From positions 1 to 25,492 of the forward strand of contig JBBCAX010000069.1 of the NCBI GenBank assembly GCA_051382335.1: DNA of 25,492 bases, written 5' to 3'. The translations under genes were made by a program, and so were the position numbers. Of this stretch, positions 1 to 7,235 are shown in pieces. The notes beneath the pieces are model-generated. The model was not told where the DNA came from and did not search any database. It saw nothing but the letters and a program-made list of their open reading frames with translations. Positions within the stretch are counted from its first letter, which is position 1. Every line of letters begins with the position of its first letter. Origin of the DNA: Deltaproteobacteria bacterium TL4. GTDB lineage: Bacteria > SAR324 > NAC60-12.

Positions 1-2
1 AA

Positions 3-854
3 GGCGGATTAGGCCCCGGAGGCGTTGCGGGAACCGTGGGTGCCGCGGTGGTTGTGCTGGGCGTCCTCTCTGAGCAGGGAAAAGACGAGGGAGGCGATAG
101 CGGTGACAGTGGTTCCTCTGCGTCCTCAACCCCTCCCACAGGAAGCGTCTTAGCCGCAGTGGATGCTGATGGCATGGTTCACCTTTCAGGGGGAACGTTT
201 CAAATGGGAAGTACCACTGGAGACAGTGATGAAACCCCAGTACATAGCGTCACTTTGAGCAGTTTTTACATTTCAGAGGCAGAAGTAACCGCAGGGGAAT
301 ACAAAGCATGTGTTGATGCGGGAGGGTGTACCGCCGCGGGTTCAGGAAGTTATGCTACCTACAAGGTCTCCGGCCAGGAAAATAATCCTATTAATTATGT
401 GAGTTGGGATGACGCGCAAAGTTACATCACGTGGCTTAATCAAAGCTCAAGCAGGAGTTATCGTCTTTGTAGCGAAGCGGAGTGGGAGTATGCGGCAAGA
501 GCTGGGACGACGACGGCTTGGTCCTGCGGAGATAGTGAGTCCTGTTTGAGTAATGTCGCTTGGTATAGCGCAAATAATTCGCCTGATGGGACGAAAGCCG
601 TGAAAACCAAGACAGCAAATGCCTGGGGATTATATGACATGCATGGAAATGTTTGGGAATGGGTTAATGATTGGTATGGCTCTTATAGCAGCGGCAGTGT
701 AACGAATCCTACTGGTCCTGCTTCTGGCTCCAACCGTGTGGGTCGTGGCGGCGGCTTCGGCGACGACGGCGGCTTGCGGTCGGCCGATCGCAACTACGAT
801 TCGCCGGGCGGTCGCTACAGCATCCTCGGTTTCCGCCTGTGTTCCAGTTTGTGA
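3..854 (+). CDS. FGE-sulfatase (SUMF1/CLec-fold) domain protein, 5'-partial; candidate DGR target
   Basis: Motifs FQMGS, ETPVHSVTL, PINYVSWDDAQ, YRLCSEAEWEYAAR, NAWGLYDMHGNVWEW, RGG...RSADR...GFRL. The frame stays open back to position 3 (GGLGPGGVAGTVGAAVVVLGVL, hydrophobic, then a Gly/Ser linker), so the true start lies upstream of the window. Confidence 0.92.
   Translation, partial: GGLGPGGVAGTVGAAVVVLGVLSEQGKDEGGDSGDSGSSASSTPPTGSVLAAVDADGMVHLSGGTFQMGSTTGDSDETPVHSVTLSSFYISEAEVTAGEYKACVDAGGCTAAGSGSYATYKVSGQENNPINYVSWDDAQSYITWLNQSSSRSYRLCSEAEWEYAARAGTTTAWSCGDSESCLSNVAWYSANNSPDGTKAVKTKTANAWGLYDMHGNVWEWVNDWYGSYSSGSVTNPTGPASGSNRVGRGGGFGDDGGLRSADRNYDSPGGRYSILGFRLCSSL
729..839 (+). other. Putative DGR variable region (VR)
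   Basis: Abrupt GC-rich tail. None of the 41 codons from 729 to 851 ends in A, and non-conserved positions are NNC/NNT codons (ggt, ggc, gac, gac, gat, aac, tac, gat, ggt, tac, agc, atc), compatible with A-mutated AAY template codons. Confidence 0.6.
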
Positions 855-930
855 CCCTTGGCGCTTTTACCCTTTTACCCTTGGAAAAACAGGGACTTGA
901 AAAGGTTTTGATGAGCAGAACAGGTCAATA

Positions 931-1062
931 ATAGGTCTGACGCAGTTCAGACCTAATTAGACCTGATTTTAGGTCTAATGGTAGTAGGAGTCAAGAAGTG
1001 ACTGATTTAGGCCTGATTTAGGCCTGAAATTGTATAGAAATCAGGTCTATTTTCAGGCCTGA
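931..1062. repeat. Array of eight 10-bp pseudo-palindromes, consensus TYAGRYCTRA
   Basis: Copies at 931 ATAGGTCTGA, 947 TCAGACCTAA, 957 TTAGACCTGA, 969 TTAGGTCTAA, 1007 and 1018 TTAGGCCTGA, 1041 TCAGGTCTAT, 1053 TCAGGCCTGA. Confidence 0.8.
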
Positions 1063-1066
1063 TTTC

Positions 1067-1115
1067 AATACACGTGCATGAAATCAGGTTTGTAGTCCCG
1101 CCTTTAGGCGGAAAG
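1067..1115 (+). repeat. Left half of a GTAG-type REP/REPIN element (interrupted)
   Basis: AATACACGTGCATGAAATC...GTAGTCCCGCCTTTAGGCGGAAAG closely matches 5403-5451. Hairpin CCGCC-TTTA-GGCGG at 1098-1111. Confidence 0.8.
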
Positions 1116-1203
1116 GTGTGCCTGACATGGCACGAATCCAGGAGGTAGAAGTCCTCTCACCGCCCTGTTAGGAGGGAAGGTGTAGCCGAAACCAAGGGTG
1201 TCG
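1116..1203 (+). mobile_element. 5' fragment (domain I) of a group IIC intron
   Basis: Begins GTGTGCCTGACATGG (GUGYG 5' consensus), contains GGAGGTAGAAGTCCTC and TAGCCGAAACCAAGGGTGTC, which resemble IIC domain I as I recall it from the O. iheyensis intron (GUGUGCCCGGCAUGG...UAGCCUAACGCAAGGGUGUC). It lies 4 nt after a hairpin. No RT ORF or domain V follows. Confidence 0.72.
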
Positions 1204-1285
1204 GAAGAAACTCAACTATGGAATGAGAATTAAATAACTTTCCCATTTGCTCTGGCCCTTGATTTTACCGGGATTTCACGATGGA

Positions 1286-1342
1286 GTAGGAGTGCAAAAG
1301 CTTGCTTTTGCCCAACTCAGGTCCTTTCTGGCAAAAGCAAGC
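1286..1342. repeat. Truncated GTAG-type REPIN
   Basis: GTAG-GAGT-GCAAAAGC-TT-GCTTTTGC hairpin, plus a 13-bp inverted repeat GCTTGCTTTTGCC (1300-1312) / GGCAAAAGCAAGC (1330-1342). The right arm breaks off at 1342. Confidence 0.65.
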
Positions 1343-1675
1343 CCCAAAATCTATTATGAGGCTCTGGCAAAAGGCATCGAAAAAGGCCGAGAAGAAGGCA
1401 TCGAAAAAGGCCGAGAAGAAGGCATTGAAAAAGGCATTGAAAAAGGCATTGAAAAAGGCATTGAAAAAGGCATTGAAAAAGGCATTGAAAAAGGCATTGA
1501 AAAAGGCATTGAAAAAGGAGAAATTATTTTATTGGGTCGGCTATTACGGAAAAAGTTTGGAGATCAAGCATATGATTTATATCAAAGTCAACTCAATCAG
1601 TGTCGTTTAGAAGAAATTGAACTCTTGTTGGAACGTATTATCACCGCGACAAAAATCGAAGAGGTTTTCAATTAA
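1343..1675 (+). pseudogene. C-terminal fragment of an Rpn/YhgA-associated DUF4351-type protein
   Basis: IYYEALAKG(IEKG)n...LLGRLLRKKFG...LEEIELLLERIITATKIEEVF is a typical DUF4351-type tail. The N-terminus of the 1247 ORF runs through REP sequence, and no nuclease domain is present. Confidence 0.75.
1373..1516 (+). repeat. 12-bp coding tandem repeat (GIEK/GREE x12)
   Basis: GGCATTGAAAAA occurs as 8 perfect copies at 1421-1516, preceded by 4 variant units. Confidence 0.95.
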
Positions 1676-1723
1676 CTCGTCCAGGTAGCTCTCCGAGAAT
1701 ATAGTGCTCAAGATAAGTTTTGT

Positions 1724-1779
1724 CCTGGGAGCGAGGGCGTCCCGCCCTCCGGTGAGGGCAAGATGCCCTCGCTCCCAGG
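1724..1779. repeat. REP-like inverted repeat
   Basis: CCTGGGAGCGAGGGC...GCCCTCGCTCCCAGG 15-bp IR with internal GAGGGC/GCCCTC hairpins. Confidence 0.8.
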
Positions 1780-1809
1780 GAAAAAACTTTCCTGGACAGC
1801 TATACATAA

Positions 1810-1898
1810 GTAGGGTGCCGCTCAAGCGAAGCGAGCGCGCCAGAAAGCAGCGGTCTCCTTGTTTGTGGTGCGCTCGCTTCGCTTAAGCGGCACCCTAC
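1810..1898. repeat. GTAG-type REPIN
   Basis: GTAGGGTGCCGCTCAAGCGAAGCGAGCGCGCCA ... TGGTGCGCTCGCTTCGCTTAAGCGGCACCCTAC, a long near-perfect IR bounded by GTAG/CTAC. Confidence 0.85.
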
Positions 1899-1946
1899 AA
1901 CCCCTTCTCGGACAGCCTCCTGGGAAAATAGCTCGAAAATGTTACC

Positions 1947-2124
1947 CTAGGTGGCTGTCCGAGAACTCGTAGGGTGGGTTAGACAGAATCAAAGCGAAGT
2001 CGTAACCCACCAATTTTAATACGAAACGCCTCATTTTGCTCCAGAATACCTGGTTTTTGGTGGGTTACGCCTTGCGGCTAACCCACCCTACGGATTCACA
2101 TTCTATTCTCGGACAGCCTCCTGG
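1947..2124. mobile_element. MITE-like unit 2 enclosing a GTAG REPIN
   Basis: CTAGGTGGCTGTCCGAGAA (1947-1965) / TTCTCGGACAGCCTCCTGG (2106-2124), the same ends as unit 1. Confidence 0.6.
1969..2091. repeat. GTAG-type REPIN
   Basis: GTAGGGTGGGTTAG...CGTAACCCACCAA ... TTGGTGGGTTACG...CTAACCCACCCTAC. Confidence 0.85.
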
Positions 2125-2327
2125 TACGTTGTCTCGAACCGCTTCTAACGTCCCGTGTCGCAGTAGCGGACGAATAGTTTTTTTATTCACCACGGTTGGT
2201 ACCTTAGGAACAAGAATTAAATAACTTCCTCTTTTAACGCAGAGGGCGCAGAGGACACAGAGAAACGTAGAGGGAATTTTATAATTTTATTTAAAGGAAG
2301 ACTAACCACTCTCAGCAAGGAAGGATC

Positions 2328-5300
2328 ATGTTAGAATCTGTAAAACCCAAAAAAGCGATTCGACAAATCAAAAAACGAGTTCATGTTTTTCGAAAAGGAG
2401 CGAAGAATACCTTGGAATTGCTCCGAGAAGGACGTTTAGGTGCGCCTTATAAAGCCGCCTTTGCTGTGCTTTATGAAGATCCTGTTTTTAAATTACGTCG
2501 TTATCTTCCAGGTGACGCGCCTTCACATGAACCAGGAAAAACCATTTTACTTGTCCCTCCATTGATGGTTGCCTCGGAAATATATGATATCTCTCCTGAG
2601 TTGAGTGCGGTCAGTTGGTTGGTGGCCCAAGGTGTGGATGTGTGGTTGGTTGATTTCGGCGAGCCGAAATCGGAAAAATATGGATTACAACGGACTTTGG
2701 ATGATCATGTCGATGCGGTCAGTATCGCTGTTGATAAAGTGAGGGAACTCACAGGAGAAAAGGTCCACCTTGCCGGATATTCACAAGGCGGGATGTTTGC
2801 GTATCAATGTGCGGCTTACCGCGAAAGTGAAGGGTTGGCCTCTGTGATTACGTTTGGAAGTCCCGTCGACATTCATCGGAATATCCCTAACGTTAACGAC
2901 GATATTGCCGGTCGAATTGTTCATACCGCGGGTCGAGCTTTGACCAAACCTCTGGAACACTTTGAAGGCTTGCCAGGTTCGCTGACCAGTAAAGGTTTTA
3001 AAATGCTCAGCGCCTCGAAAGAAGTGAAGCAAATGCTGGGAATTTTCAAAATCCTTCATGACCGGGAAGCGTTAGAACAGAGGGAACGGCGAAGGCGTTT
3101 TCTGGCAGGCGAAGGTTTTGTCTCCTGGCCAGGGCCAGCGTTACATGAGTTTGTTCGGGAAATGGTCATCAACAACCGTATGCTATCCGGTGGCATTGTG
3201 ATTAAAGGGAAAACCATCTCACTTTCCGAGATCACCTGTCCTGTTCTTTACTTTGTCGGCAGCCGGGACGATTTTGGCCGTCCTCCTTCAGTCAGAGCCA
3301 TTAGAAACGCCGCTGTCAATGCGGATATTCATGAAGTTGAATTACATGCGGGGCATTTTGGTTTAGTGGTGGGTTCTAAATCGTTAAGAATTACCTGGCC
3401 TTCGGTTGTCACATGGATGGGATGGGTTAGCGGAAAGGGGGAATTGCCCGATTCTGCTCCGGAAAAAAGAGAGGAAAGAGAGGCAGACTCTAAAGAGGAT
3501 GGTAATTTAATAGCGCCTCTCTATGATTTTGCTACCGATATTCTGGATGGGTTATGGCACCGGTTAGGGGATGTCTCTCTCGAAGTTTCTGAAATGCTGG
3601 ATATTGTCCGATGGCAATTACCCCGAATGGCACAAATTCGTCAGTTGGAAAACTACACCCGCGTGAGCATCGGACGTATTTTACAGGAGCAAGCGGAGTC
3701 CATTCCCAAGGCCACCTTCTTTTTATGGAAAGGCAGCGCTTTTACCTACGCACAAGCAAATCAACGAGTGAATCAAATCCTTTCGGGGATTATTGCGTCT
3801 GATCTCAAACCAGGGGAACACGTTGGCATTTTCATGAGTAATCATCCCGATTATCTGACAACCGTGGCGGCCTTAAATCGCTTAAACGCGATTGCCGTTC
3901 TTTTAAACGCAGAAGCCAGAGGCGAATCCTTAAAACACGCCATAGAAGCGGGGAAGGTCCAAAATATCATTATCGACCCTAATCATATCGCAGCGATGCA
4001 AGACCTTGCCTTTGCGGGAAAATGCTGGGTTCTGGGCAAAAGCAGTGAGCCCCTTCCTTCCTTCATGGAAAGTTTGGACGATTCTATGGACAGTGAGGAT
4101 GAGGAACTTCTTAGTCGTTATCCCTTAAATTCAGGTATTGCGGAAGACGTGGCTTTATTGATTTTCACCTCAGGAACAACAGGACTTCCCAAGGCTGTTA
4201 AAATCACGAACCGTCGCTGGAGTATTGCCGCCTTGGCAACGGCCGCATCCGCCACTATCACCTCCAAAGATACGGTGTATTGCTGTCTTCCTCTCTATCA
4301 TTCAACAGGCATGTTGGTCGCGGTTGGAGGCGCTTTGGTAGGAGGGGCCCGGCTTGCGTTAGCACCCCGTTTTTCCACAACCACCTTCTGGAATGAAGTT
4401 CGTCGTTATGGAGTAACCATTGTGGGCTATGTTGGAGAAATGTGTCGGTATTTAATCAACATGCCCCCGAATGAACATGAAAAACAACATTCCATCCGCT
4501 TGTTTGCTGGCAGCGGAATGCAGAAACAGGTGTGGAAAATGCTCGTAGAACGCTTTGCCCCTGAACGGGTGATGGAGTTCTATGCGTCTTCTGAAGGAAA
4601 CGCGATTCTGGCCAATCTGAGTGGCGAGAAAATAGGCTCGGTGGGACAGCCCTTGAGTGATTCCAGCCATGTTGAATTGATCCGGTATGATATCAATGAA
4701 GATCAGATTGACTGGGATGACAAAGGAAAGCCGCAACGCTGTGATCCTGAGGAAACAGGCTTACTCATTGCCAAGATTGATGAAACGCATCCTTTAGGAT
4801 ATTTTGACGGTTATGCCGAAGAAAAAGACACCAACCAGAAAATCTTAAATAATTTATTCAAAAAGGGAGATGCCTGGTTTGTTACCGGAGACCTCTTAAA
4901 ACGTGACGCGGAGGGCGACTTTTGGTTTGTTGATCGTTTAGGCGATACCTTTCGTTGGAAAGGTGAAAATGTTTCCACACAGCAAGTCTCAGCCGTGATC
5001 AGTCAAGTGCCCTTTGTCGGAATTGCTAGTGTGTATGGCGTCACCATTCCAGGCCGAGAAGGCCGTGTGGGGGTTGTCGCGCTGGAACTCAAACCAGGAA
5101 CTGTTTTTGATGGCAATTTATTATTCCAACAGGTGGAAGAAAACCTTTCTCAAGCAGCCCGTCCCCGAGTGATTCGGATAGTCTCCCGGATTGAAACAAC
5201 AGGCACCTATAAGTTTATTAAATACTCACTTCAAAAGCAGGGGGTTGATCCAGAACAGACTGATGACGCACTCTATCTCTATGATCTTCGCACTAAAACT

Positions 5301-5345
5301 TACCGGTTGATGCACCTTGAAGATTATCCTGAGGCTATTGATTAG
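2328..5345 (+). CDS. Bifunctional PhaC-like alpha/beta hydrolase fused to a FATP-type long-chain acyl-CoA synthetase (Rv1683-like architecture)
   Basis: N-terminal part: LLVPPLM, GYSQGG nucleophile elbow, GSRDD, AGHFGLVVG. C-terminal part: IFTSGTTGLPK, LPLYHS, YVGEMCRYL, EFYASSEGN, TGDLL, DRLGDTFRWKGENVST. RBS AAGGAAGGA upstream. Confidence 0.9.
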   Translation: MLESVKPKKAIRQIKKRVHVFRKGAKNTLELLREGRLGAPYKAAFAVLYEDPVFKLRRYLPGDAPSHEPGKTILLVPPLMVASEIYDISPELSAVSWLVAQGVDVWLVDFGEPKSEKYGLQRTLDDHVDAVSIAVDKVRELTGEKVHLAGYSQGGMFAYQCAAYRESEGLASVITFGSPVDIHRNIPNVNDDIAGRIVHTAGRALTKPLEHFEGLPGSLTSKGFKMLSASKEVKQMLGIFKILHDREALEQRERRRRFLAGEGFVSWPGPALHEFVREMVINNRMLSGGIVIKGKTISLSEITCPVLYFVGSRDDFGRPPSVRAIRNAAVNADIHEVELHAGHFGLVVGSKSLRITWPSVVTWMGWVSGKGELPDSAPEKREEREADSKEDGNLIAPLYDFATDILDGLWHRLGDVSLEVSEMLDIVRWQLPRMAQIRQLENYTRVSIGRILQEQAESIPKATFFLWKGSAFTYAQANQRVNQILSGIIASDLKPGEHVGIFMSNHPDYLTTVAALNRLNAIAVLLNAEARGESLKHAIEAGKVQNIIIDPNHIAAMQDLAFAGKCWVLGKSSEPLPSFMESLDDSMDSEDEELLSRYPLNSGIAEDVALLIFTSGTTGLPKAVKITNRRWSIAALATAASATITSKDTVYCCLPLYHSTGMLVAVGGALVGGARLALAPRFSTTTFWNEVRRYGVTIVGYVGEMCRYLINMPPNEHEKQHSIRLFAGSGMQKQVWKMLVERFAPERVMEFYASSEGNAILANLSGEKIGSVGQPLSDSSHVELIRYDINEDQIDWDDKGKPQRCDPEETGLLIAKIDETHPLGYFDGYAEEKDTNQKILNNLFKKGDAWFVTGDLLKRDAEGDFWFVDRLGDTFRWKGENVSTQQVSAVISQVPFVGIASVYGVTIPGREGRVGVVALELKPGTVFDGNLLFQQVEENLSQAARPRVIRIVSRIETTGTYKFIKYSLQKQGVDPEQTDDALYLYDLRTKTYRLMHLEDYPEAID

Positions 5346-5423
5346 TTGGAACCGGCTTATTTAACTTTGATACGCTTCCACAAGCTCTCATGGCATTAGG
5401 GTAATACCCGTGCATGAAATCCT

Positions 5424-5488
5424 GTTCGTAGTTCCGCCTTTAGGCGGTAAGCCTTGCAGAAAAGCCGCCTAAAGACGGAACTACGAAC
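5424..5488. repeat. Intact GTAG-type REPIN (same family as 1067-1115)
   Basis: GTTCGTAGTTCCGCCTTTAGGCGG ... CCGCCTAAAGACGGAACTACGAAC. Confidence 0.85.
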
Positions 5489-5572
5489 TTTTCACAATGA
5501 CTTCAGAAAAACTCGCTATAATTTTATAAGTAGCTGTAATTAAAATACTTATTATTATTTTCCAAATTTCAT

Positions 5573-5823
5573 TCACGGATATTGGGCATTAGGGTACTGT
5601 CGCTCAGGATCATAATTATCAGCAAGGTCTTTTAGTGCGTTTTGTACACCATCTACAAGAGGATTATCGGCTATAGTCATCGTTTCGCCAATGTCCCTTC
5701 GACTTCGCTCAGGGAACGCACTCGGAGGCTGAGCGGAGTCGAAGCCGGATTTCAAAGATAGCTGCCTTTTGGCGAAACGATGACTATAGCCGGATTATCT
5801 TTGAAGAAATAGTTGTTTTCCAT
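5573..5823 (-). pseudogene. Small 45-aa ORF interrupted by a MITE
   Basis: Removing the 113-bp insertion (one CTATAG kept) gives MENNYFFKDNPAIADNPLVDGVQNALKDLADNYDPERQYPNAQYP*, with GAGGA 8 nt before the ATG. Confidence 0.5.
5671..5789. mobile_element. MITE with perfect terminal IRs and an internal hairpin repeat
   Basis: CTATAGTCATCGTTTCGCCAA (5671-5691) / TTGGCGAAACGATGACTATAG (5769-5789). Inside: CTTCGACTTCGCTCAG...CTGAGCGGAGTCGAAG. Confidence 0.8.
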
Positions 5824-5933
5824 GTCGTGAGTTCCTCAGCTTTTGGTTAGGGTCATTTTCTTGCATTATCTTTTCCGCCCATAAATAACTAATCTCCAGC
5901 CCTGGCCATTACTACTTAATCTGTTACGAACTC

Positions 5934-7235
5934 ATGCATTGTATGGAAACTTGCACCCTTCATATTAAGCGATTTTTTGTCCTCTTGATACTCCTTCAAT
6001 GCTGCCTTCCGTATGAAGTTTTTGCCCTGTTCTTTGAACGTCGTACGAAACCTGTAGACGGGGAAAATTCTTATTTTTTCTATCCTGTCGCTTACACCGT
6101 ACCTGGCTTCGGAGCTGGCGCCGGTCTGGGTTGGACGGCTACGGAAGTGTTGGGAGAGGGATCGGACATCACGTTGCTTCATGCTGAAGGAGATTGGGCC
6201 TTTGACTCCGCGATCCTTACAGACTTGCCTCTTTTTACTCAACACTTGACGTTCTCCGCTGTTTACGCGGATCTCTATGACGGAGGTGCCAATTTATACG
6301 AACGGGGACCTGACTCCAGTGAGGAGCCTGTTCTTAAACTAGAATTGGACCGTCTGCTTACACGGGCAGCGGAAGTCAGTCTCAACTTATTTGAGAGTCA
6401 ACTGGAATTATATTACGGCGTTGCCCTCAGTCTACCCCTGGTGAAACAACTGGATTTTGGGAACTCTGAGGATCCCGAAGCGACCGAAACCCGGATCTAT
6501 CAGTTTCTTTTATTTTTAGATTTGCAAAGGCTCTTTGTCACCCGCAAAGGCTTTTACCTTGATGATACTGATGATCGACGTGATCCTCATGTTGGATATC
6601 GATTTCAGTTCGAACAATATGGTTTTGAGCTTGAAGGAAACTGGAAAAGCTATCATGTAGATGATTATAGCCTGACGTTTTTCATTCCTAATGAAGACGA
6701 TTCCGCTGTATGGGTATTTAACGCGTTTTACTCGGAAGCGGTTGTAACCCAACCCGCCTCGCTTGAAGGGATTGATGAAAGCCGATGTCTGGAACAGAAT
6801 GAGGATTTAACAGAAGAACAACGACAGCAATGCTTAGTATTTATCCGGGCTTTTAACCGCTTTGTGAAGGAAGAAGGCAACACCGCGGACGCGACCAGTT
6901 TGGGGGGACTTCAACGATTGAGAAGCTATCCACAGGGACGATTCCACGATAGTTATTCAACATTTTTTGGAATTGAATATCGCTCATATTTTTTAGAAGG
7001 CTGGAATCCTTTTGATCTGTTTATTGAAAAAGGAGTTTTTAATGGACTTCAATTAGCGTTATTCCATGAAATGGGGCAAGTGGGACCTACCAATGATCAG
7101 ACCTTGTTCGAAAACATGAAAACTTCTACAGGTTTGGGTTTACGTTTTCTTTTCAGTTCTGTTGTGGTGCGTTTTGACTATGCTGACGGTGCTGAAGGAA
7201 GCCAGACCACCGCCTTTATTGGATACCCTTTTTAA
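5934..7235 (+). CDS. Omp85/BamA-TamA-like outer-membrane barrel without POTRA domains
   Basis: Signal-like N-terminus, amphipathic strands, LGGLQRLRSYPQGRF (loop-6 VRGF-like motif), GLGLRF, and C-terminal FIGYPF. The start could be 5943. Confidence 0.75.
   Translation: MHCMETCTLHIKRFFVLLILLQCCLPYEVFALFFERRTKPVDGENSYFFYPVAYTVPGFGAGAGLGWTATEVLGEGSDITLLHAEGDWAFDSAILTDLPLFTQHLTFSAVYADLYDGGANLYERGPDSSEEPVLKLELDRLLTRAAEVSLNLFESQLELYYGVALSLPLVKQLDFGNSEDPEATETRIYQFLLFLDLQRLFVTRKGFYLDDTDDRRDPHVGYRFQFEQYGFELEGNWKSYHVDDYSLTFFIPNEDDSAVWVFNAFYSEAVVTQPASLEGIDESRCLEQNEDLTEEQRQQCLVFIRAFNRFVKEEGNTADATSLGGLQRLRSYPQGRFHDSYSTFFGIEYRSYFLEGWNPFDLFIEKGVFNGLQLALFHEMGQVGPTNDQTLFENMKTSTGLGLRFLFSSVVVRFDYADGAEGSQTTAFIGYPF

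Follow-up and report, generated by a model that had tools for sequence, protein, structure and literature searches.

A truncated gene at the edge of a contig from Deltaproteobacteria bacterium TL4 ends in what we read as a DGR variable region (VR). It matches a template repeat (TR) on another contig at all non-adenine positions and is very probably rewritten in trans by the cassette to which that template belongs. The analysed window is the whole of contig C69 (25,492 nucleotides), part of a 6.59-Mb assembly in 445 contigs (genome handle G000). Because the window begins at the contig edge, the open reading frame at 3-854 lacks its 5′ end; its features are collected in Table 1. An earlier note, made from the letters of the window alone, had picked out this gene by a switch to GC-rich codons near its 3′ end, and the counts bear this out: none of the final 41 codons ends in A, compared to 49 of 242 upstream (p about 9e-5), and GC content is 67% compared to 52% upstream. 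The NNY codons that it described at the variable positions were likewise recovered, with those opposite adenine-bearing variable template codons all ending in C or T, except for one synonymous change of TCA to TCG.

A blastn search of positions 691-920 against the genome returned AAC-rich copies on C156, C58, and C208, diverged coding copies on C60, C166, and C54, and a gene end only on C226. The copy on C156 (TR156; positions 1962-1835, minus strand) is AAY-rich and non-coding and begins about 25 nt past the stop codon of an RT. When VR and TR were compared with unbiased scoring, the C69 VR differed from TR156 at 16 of 29 adenines and at none of 93 other bases, along with one 3-nt deletion (Fisher p 1.6e-12). 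The search that the earlier note had proposed thus found a non-coding copy differing only at adenines and by one codon, behind an RT fragment, so that both a template-like copy and a DGR-class RT exist in this genome and the call of a variable region is upheld. Moreover, the template that had been predicted from the window by itself was verified almost base for base, agreeing with TR156 at 94 of the 96 bases written out.

Six templates were tested in this way. The C69 VR showed two non-adenine mismatches to TR58 and three to TR208, whereas TR133, TR387, and TR153, which belong to other template families, gave 12 to 15 and were rejected as donors. The VR is one codon shorter than all three template copies of its own family, and the VR on C166 has an extra codon at the AAC run where one is deleted in C69. 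Sister VRs had changed 14 of 31 (C60), 14 of 31 (C166), and 19 of 31 (C54) adenines, with three, zero, and one non-adenine changes, respectively. Over the four VRs, adenines were replaced by G 38 times, by T 21 times, and by C four times, and codon positions 1 and 2 held 62 of these 63 changes. By computation, TR156 permits 15 variable codons, or about 10^17 protein sequences. The end of the region is IMH-like, being identical between VR and TR over 825-847 and divergent beyond, a pattern repeated in five target ends. This 23-nt end had no exact match in metagenome and viral contigs, and the TR region had no match in any of the five relatives tried, in a search run without a positive control. 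Neither the in-frame indel nor the non-adjacent target is new, since Wu et al. 2018 (PMC5758913) report in-frame indels beside AAC as well as non-adjacent targets in 45 of 372 DGRs.

Table 1. Coordinates of features in the window (contig C69)
Feature	Positions	Strand	Remarks
DGR target gene	3..854	+	5′ end cut at contig edge; Gly/Ser linker, then FGE-type CLec domain
Hydrophobic Gly/Ala/Val stretch	12..68	+	Mean hydropathy 1.76; follows lipoprotein-like signal in C63 paralogue
PF03781 FGE-sulfatase (CLec) domain	165..839	+	Residues 55-279 of ORF 3-854
Variable region (VR)	726..824	+	16/29 template adenines changed (count over 726-847); one codon deleted beside AAC run
Invariant end common to VR and TR, IMH-like (putative function)	825..847	+	Homology to TR ceases at 847
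Stop codon and pyrimidine-rich direct repeat (CCCTT.. / TTTTACCC x2), candidate target mark	852..884	+	Motif scans
3′ flank	855..960	+	93-97% identity among sister targets; their coding parts upstream of VR 64-72%
AT-rich hairpin, C-GNA-G loop	933..954	+	GCA here, GTA in C60 and C166; 78 nt past stop
First arm of dispersed palindromic repeat	1092..1111	+	Similarity to C226 (probable cis target end) ends at 1114
5′ stub of group II intron-like element	1112..1218	+	95% to sequence ahead of C120 RT gene; no Rfam match in window
Half of short dispersed element (MITE-like)	1216..1342	+	
C-terminal fragment of DUF4351/EKG-repeat gene	1342..1675	+	Full gene behind TR spacer on C156 and C133
Remnant of DGR TR 3′ spacer	2124..2203	+	94% to C387, different TR family

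The FGE-type CLec domain named in the earlier note was recovered both as PF03781 and by comparison with known structures. Treponema TvpA (2Y3C) was the second PDB sequence match (E 1.6e-25), aligned through the VR, and a structure model built from a 36-sequence alignment (pLDDT 94.5, compared to 34.6 for a single-sequence model) matched it at a TM of 0.82. The protein is predicted to have the FGE-type CLec fold of TvpA, with the VR at its C terminus. The top fold matches of the model were FGE enzymes, as would be expected if this were an ordinary formylglycine-generating enzyme whose codon pattern arose by chance. Such enzymes carry a catalytic cysteine pair after the RGG motif, and the insert bearing it is a gap in the alignment with 6MUJ, on which ground we rejected enzyme activity. 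Together with the adenine-specific template match, a TR-VR pair that refutes it, this leaves the ordinary-enzyme reading with practically no chance of being right.

The description of the protein as membrane-anchored could not be read from the window, in which the N terminus is missing, but a lipoprotein anchor is likely from a paralogue. Bases 1-133 of C69 match, at 97% identity, a C63 gene that starts with a lipoprotein-like signal, namely a basic N terminus, a hydrophobic core, and Cys22; an N-terminal signal of this kind is a more likely anchor than the Gly/Ala/Val stretch at the start of the window. By analogy with TvpA and with the clade 5 targets described by Roux et al. (10.1101/2020.04.01.020958), surface binding is the likeliest role. 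The genome also has long FGE paralogues that resemble surface proteins and contain repeated modules bounded by cysteines (G000:C60:11840-14053, C208:12133-13837, and C367:3-1012), of which those on C208 and C367 are broken.

Three more genes (on C60, C166, and C54) and the gene end on C226 have both the TR and the 3′ flank in common with C69, as had been predicted of paralogues. Identity among the sister targets is only 64-72% upstream of the VR, rises to 97-100% over 825-854, and is 93-97% in the 106 non-coding bases that follow: the 3′ module either moves or is preserved as a block. An IS lies right behind the flank hairpin on C60.

Of the claim that this is a remote target served in trans, the first part holds only in a limited sense. 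The template is on another contig, and the reported lack of a template or RT nearby was confirmed, since neither an RT match nor a TR was found anywhere in the 25.5-kb window, of which 24.6 kb lie downstream of the target. The assembly is fragmented, however, and whatever precedes base 1 is unassembled; as used by Wu et al. (PMC5758913), a remote target is one over 100 kb from its RT. The distance between the C69 gene and its TR may in fact be short, given that the gene begins at base 1 of its contig and that a second target can directly adjoin the TR downstream, as in the TG-HRDC-AVD-RT-TR-TG architecture of Prosthecochloris. The C69 gene would then be a second target a few kilobases downstream of the TR, with the cassette just off the 5′ end of the contig. 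We consider this arrangement improbable, because behind TR156 come at least 1.8 kb of other sequence before the contig ends, the DNA behind TR58 and TR208 is unrelated, and the three sister targets sit inside contigs of 12 to 44 kb without a TR of this family.

The favored reading, service in trans by the TR156 cassette, calls for machinery of which the assembly holds pieces. Directly ahead of TR156 lies an RT gene cut by the contig edge, of which the final 121 codons are present. The only PDB match of this fragment, a weak one (E 0.009), was 8UB7, which we take to be the Bordetella phage DGR RT; the fragment shares 66% identity with the full-length RT of C153 (RT153), which itself matched 8UB7 at E 1e-55 and a group II intron RT at 3e-23. 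C153 is a complete sister cassette of architecture C1 (TG-HRDC-AVD-RT-TR), with a PEGA-FGE target, HRDC (PF00570), Avd (PF22296, NF033474), RT, and TR, and its own VR differs from its TR at 22 of 36 adenines and at none of 93 other bases. The cassette of the C156 family is represented by two ends only, RT-TR on C156 and VR-HRDC on C226, which starts at the VR end, continues with the same flank as C69, and breaks off inside the HRDC gene at the contig edge. Neither the cognate Avd nor the N-terminal part of this RT was found in the assembly, which holds only C-terminal and middle pieces of the RT and four Avd matches, none of this family; other copies of the RT end (C58, C208, and C68) are truncated, deleted, or without a TR.

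The absence of these parts means that the cognate cassette may be broken. If so, the C69 VR would be a fossil, written by TR156 at an earlier time and now frozen beside a dead cassette, in keeping with the many decayed DGR pieces elsewhere in the genome (C58, C208, C387, C207, and C133) and with decayed cassette pieces in the window itself. Against this, TR156 shows no non-adenine mismatch to the VR, the private changes of TR58 and TR208 are absent from the VR, and C156 and C226 each break off within an open gene at the contig edge, which is what a gap in the assembly would produce. Loss of the middle between C226 and C156 to such a gap is plausible, because no exact neighbor of either contig end was found in the assembly, the shortest contig has 1008 bases, and the layout of C153 predicts a gap of about 1.06 kb. 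We therefore regard a frozen target as unlikely, though by no means negligible.

Alternatively, TR156 RNA could be copied by the RT and Avd of C153, the only full RT plus Avd of CLec1 type in the assembly. The C153 target carries the same post-stop repeat as C69 (see below), and the TR 3′ spacers of C156, C208, C153, C133, and C387, together with the remnant in the window, align at 63% mean column identity, with compensatory changes in 5 of 27 predicted pairs. Yet spacer likeness is also expected from common descent, and C156 has an open RT end of its own that is only 66% identical to RT153. We give such borrowed service little credence. As an observation apart, a conserved spacer of 130 to 150 nt follows the TR in four TR families and has left an orphan piece in the window (2124-2203); Rfam gave no credible match in window 1-6000 or at the TR spacers.

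On the favored account, and following the known mechanism, the TR would be transcribed and its RNA copied by RT plus Avd with errors at adenines. The resulting cDNA would replace 726-824 and alter up to 15 codons, whose residues would sit in the binding face of what is probably a surface lipoprotein. The cognate cassette would run target-HRDC-Avd-RT-TR, starting on C226 and finishing on C156, and the repeat past the stop would likely mark the gene as a target.

How the C69 copy came to stand alone is suggested by the debris behind it. There is about an even chance that it descends from a duplicated cassette from which HRDC, Avd, RT, and TR have been lost. Three of the four starts of the DUF4351/EKG-repeat gene in the genome come right after a TR spacer; the tail of this gene in the window is weakened as a marker of cassette deletion by the presence of about a dozen copies or fragments genome-wide, which is why we put the chance no higher. 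For Treponema, extra targets have been suggested to be leftovers or duplications of a core module (PMC4891356). Elsewhere in the window, dense palindromic intergenic repeats occupy 920-1060, 1690-1960, and 5414-5496, an element at 1700-1810 has over 150 blast matches in the genome, and 2328-5345 encodes a 1005-aa fusion of alpha/beta-hydrolase and AMP-binding (acyl-CoA synthetase-like) domains.

The genome as a whole is rich in DGRs. A scan of 497 AAC-rich candidates yielded four TR families with targets, namely C156 (four full VRs), C135 (seven), C153 (one), and C207 (three), for a total of 15 full VRs plus one VR end; the TRs on C133 and C387 had no VR in this genome-wide scan. In the C135 family (G000:C135:17554-20653, C34, C53, C187, and C172), one TR matches seven Lcl_C VRs, the RT carries a MutS_I tail, and the targets are followed by GATTATTT direct repeats at the same position as the repeat of C69. 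A third FGE template lies in a deleted cassette (G000:C207:12949-13078) and has three VRs (C302, C394, and C3) with two to three non-adenine mismatches each and no repeat, one of them frameshifted. Two further FGE ends (G000:C253:57898-58839 and C116 near 13646) have VR-like codons, with 1 to 2 of 38 ending in A, and no template match; these genes are possibly former DGR targets. Because RT153 was matched at E 1e-30 in only one of the 44 other genomes of the family searched, the DGR expansion looks lineage-specific among those genomes.

The post-stop direct repeats reported by the earlier note are in place, with CCCTTGG at 855-861 and again at 878-884 and TTTTACCC twice, starting at 865. A 16-mer of this repeat occurs eight times in the genome at no more than one mismatch, six times directly behind the VR stops of two TR families and twice behind group II intron ends. 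Allowing up to four mismatches, the 19-mer follows five of 3681 ORF ends (ORFs of at least 200 codons, this genome), and all five belong to DGR targets; none of six TR flanks has it. The repeat behind the stop is a likely mark of the gene as a DGR target. The two intron ends, at G000:C387:130-270 and at G000:C304 (minus strand, near 381), are each followed by a few bases, a stop, and the same repeat, and on C387 a broken HRDC-Avd-RT-TR stands downstream; a group II intron appears to have inserted twice at the end of DGR target genes.

At the position of the repeat, a GC hairpin directly after the IMH was ruled out by shuffle folding of 840-930, where no significant fold was found; for the first 60 to 90 nt after the VR, folding was no stronger than in shuffled sequences (z about +1). 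Nor did a scan for terminators detect one on the plus strand behind the target gene. A GC-rich inverted repeat follows the IMH in only 34% of DGRs listed by Wu et al. (PMC5758913) and is not universal; how cDNA finds dispersed targets elsewhere is the question on which the repeat bears.

An exact scan of metagenome contigs found the repeat at 119 or more loci. Among the 119 matches listed, 46 (44 of them distinct) lie just behind the end of an FGE/CLec1-type gene on the same strand, 45 are plain low-complexity arrays, and 28 are other matches. At 80% identity, each of the 44 distinct loci listed falls into a cluster of its own, and their GC content ranges from 37 to 69%. Among them, the gap from stop to repeat is 9 nt in 14, as in C69, and flank columns outside the searched motif are kept, with T at −12 in 38, T at −6 in 42, and G at −3 in 35. 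In the 26 of these 44 with enough upstream sequence, A-ending codons make up 2% of the VR zone, compared to 19% upstream. Since only two of the 44 (L082 and L111) show a clean template in the fetched DNA, and two more a poorly matching one, most of these ends are VR-like rather than proven targets. Ten additional FGE ends occur in the metagenome loci, and only 3 of them carry the repeat when three mismatches are allowed. A GNA-loop hairpin occurs within 75 nt as well as the repeat in 13 of the 44 listed loci (shuffle mean 1.0). In a relative, L014 (G016:C159) is an FGE gene with a VR-like end and an exact repeat; in that 88% complete genome, an RT153 query found no DGR RT, and no matching TR was found. 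Viral contigs gave three matches to the 19-nt repeat, none at an FGE gene or RT.

We also assembled a set of DGRs independently of the motif, by RT or target similarity, comprising 5 of 12 plasmid records, the relative L034, and six further loci. All 10 FGE-type VRs in this set (Prosthecochloris, 2; Acaryochloris, 3; Anabaena, 2; Microcystis, 2; G004, 1) have the repeat near the stop at one to four mismatches, compared to none of eight other VRs, which have 7 to 10 mismatches.

Rho loading sites are C-rich and G-poor, as the repeat is, so that it could be a transcript 3′ element of this type, or an inherited passenger, rather than a targeting signal. This is a real possibility, although we lean against it. 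The repeat is not universal (the three C207-family FGE targets lack it, and the Lcl_C family has a different short repeat), and the low-complexity arrays make up a good part of the metagenome matches listed. Nevertheless, among ORF ends in TL4 the repeat is confined to DGR targets, and its position and strand are kept across loci of widely differing GC content. In L071 it is retained behind an internal FGE domain, within a reading frame that runs on, and in L147 it precedes the stop codon. Four loci (L071, L050, L094, and L147) have tandem FGE domains with the repeat, or a worn form of it, in frame behind an internal VR-like end.

A broader proposal, about as likely as not, is that FGE/CLec1-type cellular DGRs in several phyla mark their targets with a conserved, pyrimidine-type direct repeat of about 32 nt, TAACCCTTTGC-N-CTTTTACCCTTTTACCCTTTG, about 9 nt past the stop, where phage DGRs use a GC hairpin. 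It would serve as a portable address, read in the DNA by its sequence, through which one template reaches dispersed genes, perhaps a protein-binding or strand-opening site for cDNA entry. Conserved cis features have been suggested as activators of remote targets (PMC7517822), and the hairpin is described as helpful, not essential, with efficiency linked to replication direction (PMC12875486). The repeat does not always replace a hairpin, given that 13 of the 44 listed loci have both and that strong or weak stem-loops are listed by Wu et al. (PMC5758913) for some cyanobacterial DGRs. No description of the repeat was found in the literature consulted, including PMC10907252, PMC4143802, 10.1101/2024.11.15.621889, and the Wu supplement; subscription papers, figures, and bioRxiv supplements may show it. 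Its presence in cultured strains of Prosthecochloris, Acaryochloris, Anabaena, and Microcystis makes the targeting question testable by mutagenesis. If the targeting role is true, remote targets could be found without their template, and cellular DGRs might be redirected to chosen genes.

Among known systems, the closest in layout is plasmid pPAES01 of Prosthecochloris aestuarii DSM 271 (NC_011061.1), which has the order of C153 (FGE target-HRDC-Avd-RT-TR) and is no. 95 in Table S1 of Wu et al. 2018 (architecture C1, CLec1; PMC5758913). Among plasmid matches to RT153, its RT is the best, at 53% identity, and both of its FGE targets carry the repeat at two to three mismatches; that table lists no GC-rich stem-loop behind either VR. 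Its DGR is plasmid-borne with two adjacent targets, whereas in TL4 at least five target ends on separate contigs share one TR, and at least three other TR families with targets stand beside the C156 family. The TR of pPAES01 (L176:8728-8830) is shorter than both VRs through internal deletion, and Wu et al. list indels of 24 and 30 bp for this DGR.

The DGR of Treponema denticola ATCC 35405 (no. 97 of the same table, with no GC-rich stem-loop listed there) likewise combines an FGE-type CLec1 target (TvpA), an HRDC gene, and many non-adjacent targets, most of which have predicted lipoprotein signals (PMC4891356). Unlike C153, it has the order TG-TR-HRDC-RT, without Avd. Trichodesmium erythraeum IMS101 (PMC4143802) also has one TR with many dispersed FGE-type targets (12 reported), but its cassette has no HRDC, and strong stem-loops are listed for adjacent targets. 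Bordetella phage BPP-1 (Guo et al. 2011, PMC3240598) shares with C69 an invariant VR end and a cis element at the VR and not at the TR. Elements of the BPP-1 type are described as 7- to 10-bp GC-rich stems with a GRNA loop, 4 to 34 bp from the VR, whereas C69 has a pyrimidine direct repeat in the place of the hairpin and an AT-rich hairpin 78 nt out. Set against these systems, the C69 gene is, by its tested features, a CLec1/FGE DGR target of the HRDC type, and DGRs of this kind with non-adjacent targets are known; the repeat is the more unusual element.
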